DNA of 64,000 nucleotides, taken from assembly GCF_045037415.1 (NCBI RefSeq), contig NZ_CP173438.1. The stretch is one strand, 5' to 3'. This DNA is from Escherichia coli (GTDB taxonomy: Bacteria > Pseudomonadota > Gammaproteobacteria > Enterobacterales > Enterobacteriaceae). Position numbers: made by a program. Below, piece after piece: positions 33,026 to 36,000 of the stretch (its first letter is position 1; each line of letters begins with the position of its first letter).

Positions 33026-36000
33026 TTATTGTCCTGCGAGTTGCTGAAGGGCTGTGATGACGCGGTCGGCATCGGCGGTGGTCATATCCGGGAACAGCGG
33101 CAATGAACAGATGCGTTCGCTATTCCATTCGGTATTCGGTAACGACAGCGTGGGAAAACGCTCGCGATAATATTTTTGTGTGTGAGCAGCGCGGAAATGT
33201 AACCCGGTACCAATGCCTCTTTCTTTTAACGCTTCCATCAACGCATCGCGACTGATACCACAACGTTGTTCATCGACACGAATAATAAACAGATGCCAGG
33301 CGTGAACGTGCGGCCAGGCGGGAAGGCTTAATGGCTGAAAGGGGAGAGTTGCCAGTGCTTGCTGATATTGCTGGGCAATTTCGCGCCGCCGGGTGTTGAG
33401 GTGCTCTAATTTGACTAACTGTGTCAGGGCAATCGCGGCGTTAATATCGGTCAGATTGTACTTATAGCCCGGCGTTAAGACTTCAGCCTGCGGTGCACGG
33501 CCCCAGGTATGTCTGTCATAGGCATCGACACCCAGACCGTGAAATTTCAGCATCCGCAGCTGGCGGGCAAGATTTTCATTATCAGTAACAATCAGGCCAC
33601 CTTCCGCACAGGTAATATTTTTGATGGCGTGAAACGAAAAAATAGCGGTACCTTTTGCGCCAATATGTCGCCCTTTGTAATACGTACCTACGGCATGGGC
33701 AGCATCTTCGATAACTGCGATGCCGTAACGTTCGCCAATGGCGCGAATGGCGTCAATATCTGCTGGCGCACCGGCATAATGCACCGGAATGATGGCTTTA
33801 GTGCGTGGTGTAATGGCTGCTTCGATCGCTTCAGGCGTGACCATCAGCGTATCGCGGTCGACATCCACCATTACCGGCGTTGCACCCAGCAAGGAAATCA
33901 TATTGAGGGTTGAAACCCAGGTCAGGGAAGGCGTAATCACTTCATCGCCCTTGCCAATTTCCAACGCCATTAGCGTGATATGCATTCCGGCGGTGGCTGA
34001 ACTGACCGCGATGGCATGCTGATTTCCCGTCAACTGGCAAAAAGCTTGTTCAAGCGCCTGATTCTTCGGACCGGTTGTGATCCAACCGGATTCGAGAACC
34101 TCTTTAACTGCAGCGAGTTCCTCTACGCCCATTGCTGGTCGCGAAAAAGGCAAAAATCCTGACATTGTTTTTCCATCCGTCATTGAATACCTGTCCACTT
34201 ATATTTGCTATAAAGAGTGTTGTGTATATTTTGCCATTTGGAGCAAAATTTTAAGGATAGAATATTAACTTAACCTTAAGAAACTAATATTAGACGTAAA
34301 TATTGAAATTTTTATATTTTTTCTTATTTAGACTTTGCATTTGGCAAAATTTTGAGGCATTTTGCCGGCATCATAGGATTTTTAATATTACACCAACTGC
34401 TAATTATCGCCAGAAAAGTCGCTCAATTTCACGGTAATTGTCTGGTTGCGCTTGTCTACAGGTGGAGTTTACGTGTTAGCTTTTTGCCGATCTTCGTTGA
34501 AGTCAAAAAAATATTTCATCATTTTACTGGCGCTCGCTGCAATTGCCGGACTGGGGACTCATGCCGCCTGGAGTAGCAATGGTTTGCCACGCATCGACAA
34601 TAAAACACTGGCCAGACTGGCACAGCAGCACCCGGTTGTCGTTTTGTTTCGCCATGCTGAACGTTGCGATCGTTCAACCAATCAATGCTTGTCAGATAAA
34701 ACAGGTATTACGGTCAAAGGTACCCAGGATGCCCGTGAACTGGGCAACGCTTTTAGTGCTGATATCCCTGATTTTGATCTCTATTCCAGTAATACCGTCC
34801 GGACTATTCAGTCGGCGACCTGGTTTTCGGCGGGTAAAAAGCTGACGGTAGATAAACGATTTCTTCAATGCGGTAATGAGATTTATAGTGCAATTAAAGA
34901 CTTACAACGCAAAGCACCTGATAAAAATATCGTTATTTTTACCCATAATCATTGCCTGACATATATTGCTAAAGATAAGCGTGATGCGACATTTAAACCT
35001 GATTATCTGGATGGTTTAGTCATGCATGTGGAAAAAGGCAAAGTTTATCTGGATGGGGAATTCGTTAACCACTAAATTTTCAATCTGACAGCCAGTGATG
35101 GCTGTCATCATTGTTAAAGAAGACCTTTCAAACGTAACGTTTTTCGGGTGGCAACATTCAAATCATAATGCACCAGATCTTCAGGTTTTACCCACGCGTA
35201 GTCCTGAAACTCTTCGTTTATTTTCACATCTCGGTTGGCAGAAACGCAGTCAAAAATCAGGTAAATCATATAAATCTCTTCCTTGCGACCATCTGCATAC
35301 GTCTTGGTGCGAATATCATCGCTGAAGGTCCACGGCGTGATTTCTGTCAAAAGCAGCTGTTCTCCCAGTTCTTCGCGAATTTCGCGGCGTAGTGCCTCTT
35401 CAATTCGTTCGCCAGGCTCCACGCCGCCACCCGAAAGCGCCCATTGACCGGGGAAAACGCCGCGATCGTCGGCCATTTTACACAGCAAATAAGCACCATC
35501 ATTTTGAATCAAAGGGCATACAATAGTCCGTTGTCGCACAGGGGTATTCCTTATAAATAAAAAGAAACCATGAGAATACGGTAACTCAGAAATATGTGAA
35601 AGTGACAGTAATCTCTTTTGCGATGATAACTACATTTATTATTATTTTTGTGTGTATCGATAAAGTGTGTTTATTTTTTCGGCGTTTAATTATTTAAGAA
35701 GTATTTAGTTACAATAAGTGACTAGATCCCTTTTTTCGCTCATTGAATCCTCTGCGCCAGGCAGTACAATCCCGCAGCTTTGGGAATTTTGATTAATTGC
35801 TTGTGGGAAAGAGGATAATGAAAAAAATTGCGCTAGCAGGTCTGGCCGGAATGCTGTTGGTTTCTGCATCGGTCAATGCAATGAGCATCAGCGGCCAGGC
35901 GGGTAAAGAATACACCAATATTGGTGTCGGTTTTGGGACTGAATCGACGGGCCTGGCGTTAAGCGGTAACTGGACACATAACGACGACGACGGTGATGCC

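Follow-up and report, generated by a model that had tools for sequence, protein, structure and literature searches.

The hairpin between the convergent genes ais and nudI of Escherichia coli is an ordinary, already catalogued transcript-end stem-loop. It folds stably on both strands, its arms are conserved in Escherichia, Salmonella and some Citrobacter, and published 3′ ends of nudI RNA lie directly past it. We give about even chances to a reading in which both genes share it as a protective, 3′-end-defining stem-loop: RNA polymerase would be released downstream, probably by Rho, or by weak intrinsic termination, and the transcript would be trimmed back to the stem. Throughout, "the window" is the whole stretch of DNA analysed, 64,000 nt long.

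Gene names in the window follow the RefSeq annotation of strain SK1144, to which a 401-bp query around the hairpin is 100% identical; the same query finds matches in 5411 of 5426 complete E. coli genomes. The annotated gene order is arnB (-), ais (+), nudI (-), yfaZ (+) and yfaY (+). The ais stop codon TAA occupies 35073-35075 and the nudI stop codon 35114-35116 (TTA on the + strand), leaving a spacer of 38 nt between the two convergent genes. The genes and the nested structures between them are as follows.

34473-35075, + strand: ais, lipopolysaccharide core heptose(II)-phosphate phosphatase, upstream convergent gene (RefSeq annotation)
35114-35539, - strand: nudI, nucleoside triphosphatase, convergent partner gene (RefSeq annotation)
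35087-35106, unstranded: core hairpin, 8-bp perfect inverted repeat with a 4-nt loop (sequence and folding)
35086-35107, unstranded: full 9-bp stem TGACAGCCA/TGGCTGTCA (folding, terminator scan, window match search)
35081-35113, unstranded: extended structure with an outer 4-bp helix (folding)

Elsewhere in this neighbourhood, the divergent arnB/ais promoter region holds another perfect 8-bp inverted repeat, GGCAAAAT-n8-ATTTTGCC at 34343-34366, about 110-130 nt upstream of the ais start, which could be a regulator site or a 5′-UTR hairpin. Two mobile elements relative to K-12 were also observed in the window: an ISNCY-family transposase with a truncated gene downstream of yfaU (about 42092-43321), and the IS3-family element IS1397 between yfaL and ubiG (59468-60816).

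A preliminary description of this DNA had reported a perfect 8-bp hairpin between the convergent genes, 11 nt past the ais stop and 7 nt short of the nudI stop. The sequence at 35087-35106 reads exactly so, and both distances are exact; the hairpin is slightly bigger than described, with a ninth pair, T35086-A35107, lengthening the core. The 8-bp core (GACAGCCA at 35087-35094, loop GTGA at 35095-35098, TGGCTGTC at 35099-35106) folds at -13.2 kcal/mol on the + strand and -12.3 kcal/mol on the - strand (z about -5.3). An outer helix, CAAT (35081-84) against ATTG (35110-13), closes over a small internal loop, and the resulting extended structure takes up nearly the entire spacer. The 44-nt stop-to-stop segment folds at -16.4 kcal/mol in the ais sense and -17.0 kcal/mol in the nudI sense, while 60-nt folds reach -16.6 and -17.0 kcal/mol, with z-scores against shuffles of -3.7 (+) and -2.6 (-). 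With 9 bp, 5 G-C pairs and a 4-nt loop, the hairpin is a stable stem-loop of the kind found in intrinsic terminators, taken here as a G+C-containing stem of about 5-14 bp with a loop of 3-8 nt.

An 8-bp hairpin somewhere in 64 kb is unremarkable, since the window contains 14 perfect ones against 6.7 +/- 3.2 in shuffles. For the 38-nt spacer itself, the probability of containing one is 0.0014-0.0017 when the stem has 8 bp and 0.0003-0.0004 when it has 9 bp, or about 4e-4 to 2e-3 overall for a stem this long. The 9-bp stem has a single match in the window when up to 3 mismatches are allowed (0 expected by chance). Rfam 15 returned no match above the gathering threshold at the hairpin; its only hit in the window is the nuoG RNA (RF01748, 50.3 bits) at 3756-3798 (+), directly 5′ of the nuoG coding sequence.

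The sequences that follow the stem are poor in U. The hairpin had been described as lacking a U-tract on either side, which is right for the nudI sense, where the tail past the 9-bp stem, GAUUGAAA, has 2 U of 8; the description needs amending for the ais sense, where 5 of 8 nucleotides are U, in an interrupted arrangement with a longest run of 2.

35108-35115, + strand: interrupted U-rich tail UCAUUGUU in the ais sense, overlapping the nudI stop codon (sequence, terminator scan)

A U-rich tract of 7-8 nt directly past the stem is found on neither strand in the window, and no run of at least 3 U touches the stem on either strand of the E. coli sequence; in the nudI sense, a UUU lies 5-7 nt past the extended stem. 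A lenient terminator scan lists the + strand hairpin (9 pairs, 5 G-C, 5 T in 8) and hardly discriminates, giving 7 sites in the window against 4.9 +/- 2.5 in shuffles. Immediately beyond the stem, C exceeds G in a rut-like manner: over 78 nt, the C/G ratio peaks at 2.4 for nudI-sense RNA and at 2.3 for ais-sense RNA, compared with a 99th percentile of 2.2 for the window, which places both flanks in the top ~1% by a measure that is crude because the antisense strands of genes are generally C-rich.

Mapped transcript ends place the 3′ terminus of nudI at this structure.

35080-35083, - strand: K-12 MG1655 nudI 3′ ends 2365010, 2365011 and 2365013, equal to window positions 35083, 35082 and 35080 (PMC7815308, PMC10687069)

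Term-seq of MG1655 lists a "primary" nudI 3′ end at 2365011 (+), antisense to ais (Adams 2021, PMC7815308 Supplementary file 1), with 3673 reads in LB at OD 0.4, 1612 reads at OD 2.0 and the flanking sequence ...GACAGCCATTACTGGCTGTCAGAT[T]GAAAATTTAG. The register of this table was checked on thrL, whose 3′ end falls at nucleotide 51 in the 61-nt string. When carried over from K-12 to the window through sequence identity, with the nudI stop (2364979 = window 35114) as anchor, the end falls 4 nt past the 9-bp stem, at 35082 on the minus strand. The TRS 2023 study gives the primary nudI terminus as 2365010 and 2365013 (PMC10687069 Supplementary Data 2-4), with a predicted fold of -17 kcal/mol and no U run longer than 3. 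Two independent data sets thus put the primary nudI 3′ end 3-6 nt past the 9-bp stem, and it is present in two growth phases (LB at OD 0.4 and OD 2.0), a steady-state end directly past a stable, U-poor stem-loop. The preliminary description had proposed that the hairpin may terminate both transcripts, and had named Term-seq or 3′ RACE as the check. The published ends answer that check for nudI, where they lie at the stem as proposed, although an end at the stem falls short of proving termination: steady-state 3′ ends cannot separate termination by the hairpin from trimming after termination further downstream.

On the ais side, the available portions of the PMC7815308 and PMC10687069 tables, covering LB and minimal medium, contain no ais-sense 3′ end near the hairpin, probably because ais is not expressed in either medium. 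The site is also absent from the bicyclomycin table of PMC7815308, which may mean that it is not Rho-dependent or simply that it went unscored. TERMITe has no entry for ais or nudI, and a literature keyword search combining nudI, ais and terminator returned irrelevant papers only.

Within E. coli, the hairpin is nearly invariant. The 44-bp stop-to-stop segment occurs once in each of 5407 genomes out of the 5426 complete ones; 2659 of the copies match it exactly and another 2742 carry one or two differences. Among the sampled alleles, variation is almost confined to the loop, the commonest difference being a G-to-A change that gives GTAA, as in K-12, with further differences in the outer helix and the flanks. 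Six genomes have more changes in the segment, and the one of these that was sampled has a T-to-C change in the stem, leaving a G.U pair in the nudI sense and an A.C mismatch in the ais sense. Two independent IS1-family insertions were also seen within the final ~45 nt of ais: in strain UTME-10 (locus L003, 2665-3416) the hairpin and nudI are lost alongside, and in strain E69 (locus L011, ~2510) both are intact.

Across genera, a genome scan for NudI returned 80 loci, in 15 of which ais is convergent with nudI; these belong to Escherichia species, Salmonella arizonae and diarizonae, and several Citrobacter. The core GACAGCC...GGCTGTC is kept in 12 of the 15 (Escherichia, Salmonella, some Citrobacter), while loops vary in sequence and length (4-7 nt) across genera and the flanks cannot be aligned. 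The remaining three, all Citrobacter, have a different, longer, A+T-rich hairpin that keeps only the GCTGTCAT arm. At each of the ais/nudI junctions examined, both strands form a hairpin of -10.9 kcal/mol or lower. Loci in which nudI lies next to some other gene (Klebsiella, Kluyvera, Enterobacter, Raoultella and others) lack the motif and contain other hairpins. Across loci, the stem stands 4-9 nt from the nudI stop and 11-28 nt from the ais stop; the steadier distance to nudI suggests that the hairpin is anchored to that gene.

The tails differ among these orthologues. In the nudI sense, the tail is rich in T in Salmonella arizonae and diarizonae and in two Citrobacter (TTTACGTTTTT, TCTTTATTTAT, TTTTATTC), the Salmonella one reading UUUACGUUUUU. 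C. amalonaticus S646 has an ais-sense stem of 13 bp, followed by UUUU. A covariation count gave no support either way (83.7% paired against 82.2% in shuffles) and adds nothing, since the core pairs do not vary and the outer ones are noisy; the comparative argument for the structure therefore lies solely in the contrast between conserved arms and a variable loop. Two further ideas were discarded. GUGA in the window and GUAA in K-12 fit a GNRA tetraloop in the ais sense, whereas GUCA, GUUA, GAUA and AUAA occur elsewhere in Escherichia; and substitutions compatible with G.U pairing, considered as a sign of strand bias, are split by lineage between the nudI and ais senses and are too few. As a separate observation from the same scan, NudI homologues 74-77% identical to E. 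coli NudI occur on contigs labelled Rhizobium or Rhizobiales (loci L063, L068, L069, L073, L074, L076, L084 and L088; match at 2001-2423), which are up to 2.2 Mb long with a local G+C of 0.55-0.64. Such identity is surprisingly high between alpha- and gammaproteobacteria and suggests horizontal transfer or mislabelled assemblies.

Hairpins of this kind are usual at gene ends in the window. All six of its non-overlapping convergent junctions carry a hairpin of -12 to -32 kcal/mol, the other five being at 13924-13989, 17448-17567, 42052-42091, 51144-51196 and 59396-59467. Only the nuoN/yfbM junction has a canonical A/U-flanked bidirectional intrinsic terminator, with an A-tract, hairpin and U-tract at 13945-13975. 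At the junction that follows yfaL, GCCGGATGCGGCG...TAGGCC motifs give a REP-like appearance, and pmrD and arnF overlap by 7 nt (26815-26821), without space for a hairpin. Close to the ais/nudI junction, the yfaZ 3′ hairpin, GGCGCGGCG/ttc/TGTCGCGCC at 36369-36389 (+), has a weak U tail and is listed as the primary 3′ terminus of yfaZ (PMC10687069). Used as a control in the same genomes (Escherichia, Salmonella, Citrobacter), it has conserved arms with a variable loop and flanks, so that this pattern appears typical of 3′-end hairpins here.

The favoured model starts from what is directly observed, namely a conserved structure and the mapped 3′ end of nudI. RNA of the palindrome would fold as a stem-loop in both the ais and the nudI transcripts, defining and protecting the 3′ end of nudI mRNA and probably, by extension, that of ais mRNA. 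Lacking a proper U-tract, the stem is, we think, at most a weak terminator alone. Polymerases that pass it would enter the antisense strand of the partner gene, where the RNA would go untranslated (past the nudI-sense stem it is antisense to ais), and would be released there, most likely by Rho. The 3′-to-5′ exonucleases PNPase and RNase II would then shorten the tail as far as the stem base, yielding the sharp steady-state nudI end 3-6 nt past it. Such a route has precedent: Rho-dependent E. coli transcripts end precisely after stable stem-loops without U-rich tails or upstream A-tracts, PNPase and RNase II produce these ends by trimming RNAs that terminated further downstream, and Rho dependence is commoner among weakly expressed genes (PMC6061677). 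Given the U-rich nudI-sense tail of Salmonella and some Citrobacter, the Escherichia form looks like a nudI intrinsic terminator minus its U-tract. Convergent transcription of ais is apparently not needed, since the nudI end forms in LB without a detected ais 3′ end. Weak termination in situ with slight trimming, by way of the UUU 5-7 nt past the extended stem, fits equally well.

A less likely but live alternative is a true bidirectional terminator, in which the hairpin RNA would pause or trap polymerase arriving from either side and end transcription in situ without a U-tract, perhaps helped by head-on and trailing collisions of polymerases. The arrangement suits it, with convergent genes 38 nt apart and a palindrome of similar stability on either strand (about -16 to -17 kcal/mol in both transcripts), and so does the nudI 3′ end at the stem. 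The bidirectional elements of Ju et al. 2019, as summarised in the preprint 10.1101/2022.10.23.513370, control hundreds of E. coli genes, are unlike intrinsic terminators and are Rho-independent. The absence of this site from the bicyclomycin-sensitive list of PMC7815308 counts on the same side. Stem substitutions in MOD1-EC7003, MFDS1019527 and E. albertii keep a G.U pair in the nudI sense, and those in E. whittamii and E1V33 keep one in the ais sense, a distribution compatible with use of both strands. However, the collision model for terminators between convergent genes (10.1101/2022.10.23.513370) needs transcription from both sides, whereas the nudI end is seen in LB without an ais 3′ end; a mapped 3′ end exists on the nudI side only; and steady-state ends look alike whether made by termination or trimming. 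An extension of this idea, which we regard as quite unlikely, would make the hairpin a two-way terminator whose efficiency is set by traffic from the opposite side through polymerase collisions in the 38-nt spacer. If so, induction of ais by BasS/BasR (metals, polymyxin-type stress) would shift the site and efficiency of the nudI end, and the reverse, coupling expression of a Nudix nucleotide-cleansing enzyme to LPS-modification signalling.

It is rather unlikely that the hairpin is a conventional weak intrinsic terminator for mainly one gene, with only an incidental effect on the other strand. It would then serve ais through the UCAUUGUU tail, as its listing in the consensus scan and the 13-bp stem with UUUU of C. 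amalonaticus S646 might suggest, or nudI through the UUU past the extended stem, in keeping with the U-rich nudI-sense tails of Salmonella and other Citrobacter and with a stem whose distance to the nudI stop varies less than that to the ais stop. That scan is weak, finding hardly more sites than in shuffles, and the stem is touched by no run of 3 or more U on either E. coli strand; moreover, with the stem 6-7 nt past the nudI stop, a terminating ribosome would be expected to cover its 5′ arm. We consider it very improbable that the palindrome acts as DNA, as a site for a dimeric regulator, or is a functionless chance repeat. Its arm sequence is conserved rather than covarying, which speaks for such a reading, but an arm spacing of 4-7 nt among genera would not be tolerable for a fixed dimer site, the position at the 3′ ends of both genes is away from their promoters, a transcript end maps to the palindrome, and the yfaZ 3′-end hairpin likewise combines conserved arms with a variable loop. 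The low probability of chance occurrence and the single copy, one per genome and one in the window, weigh against it too. A repeat family or a protein-binding site was rejected on the single copy and the variable arm spacing.

Comparison with known systems places the hairpin closest to the protective 3′ stem-loops of Rho-dependent transcripts (PMC6061677), with which it shares a stable stem-loop directly upstream of a sharp steady-state 3′ end, a U-poor tail, no upstream A-tract, more C than G downstream and a weakly expressed gene. It differs in that one palindrome would serve two convergent genes, and Rho dependence and trimming at this site would be by analogy. It resembles the bidirectional terminators of Ju et al. 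2019 (as summarised in 10.1101/2022.10.23.513370) as a non-canonical hairpin element in a short convergent spacer with a 3′ end on one side; unlike them, it has only the nudI end documented of the two, and ais seems silent when that end forms, a misfit for the collision mechanism. With the canonical intrinsic terminator at nuoN/yfbM (13945-13975) it shares a G+C-containing 9-bp stem, a 4-nt loop, a stability of -13 to -17 kcal/mol and a position just past a stop codon, but it lacks a continuous U-tract on either strand; its Salmonella and some of its Citrobacter orthologues, with their U-rich nudI-sense tails, come closer to that type. Like REP and BIME elements, it is an imperfect palindrome in a 3′ intergenic region, able to stabilise upstream mRNA. 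Unlike these many-copy repeats, it bears no match to the REP sequence and is single-copy (one place per genome in 5407 genomes, one window match at up to 3 mismatches), and membership of that family was rejected.

The hairpin matters little beyond annotation, where it sets the nudI 3′ UTR at ~32 nt and would predict an ais 3′ end, as one more of the conserved, U-poor stem-loops common to convergent genes. It also offers an evolutionary illustration, in that the same stem has a U-rich tail in Salmonella and some Citrobacter and not in Escherichia, a contrast in line with a published idea, by which terminators shift between intrinsic and Rho-assisted forms through gain or loss of U. The ais/nudI junction may also be a compact natural test case for protection versus termination at convergent junctions.
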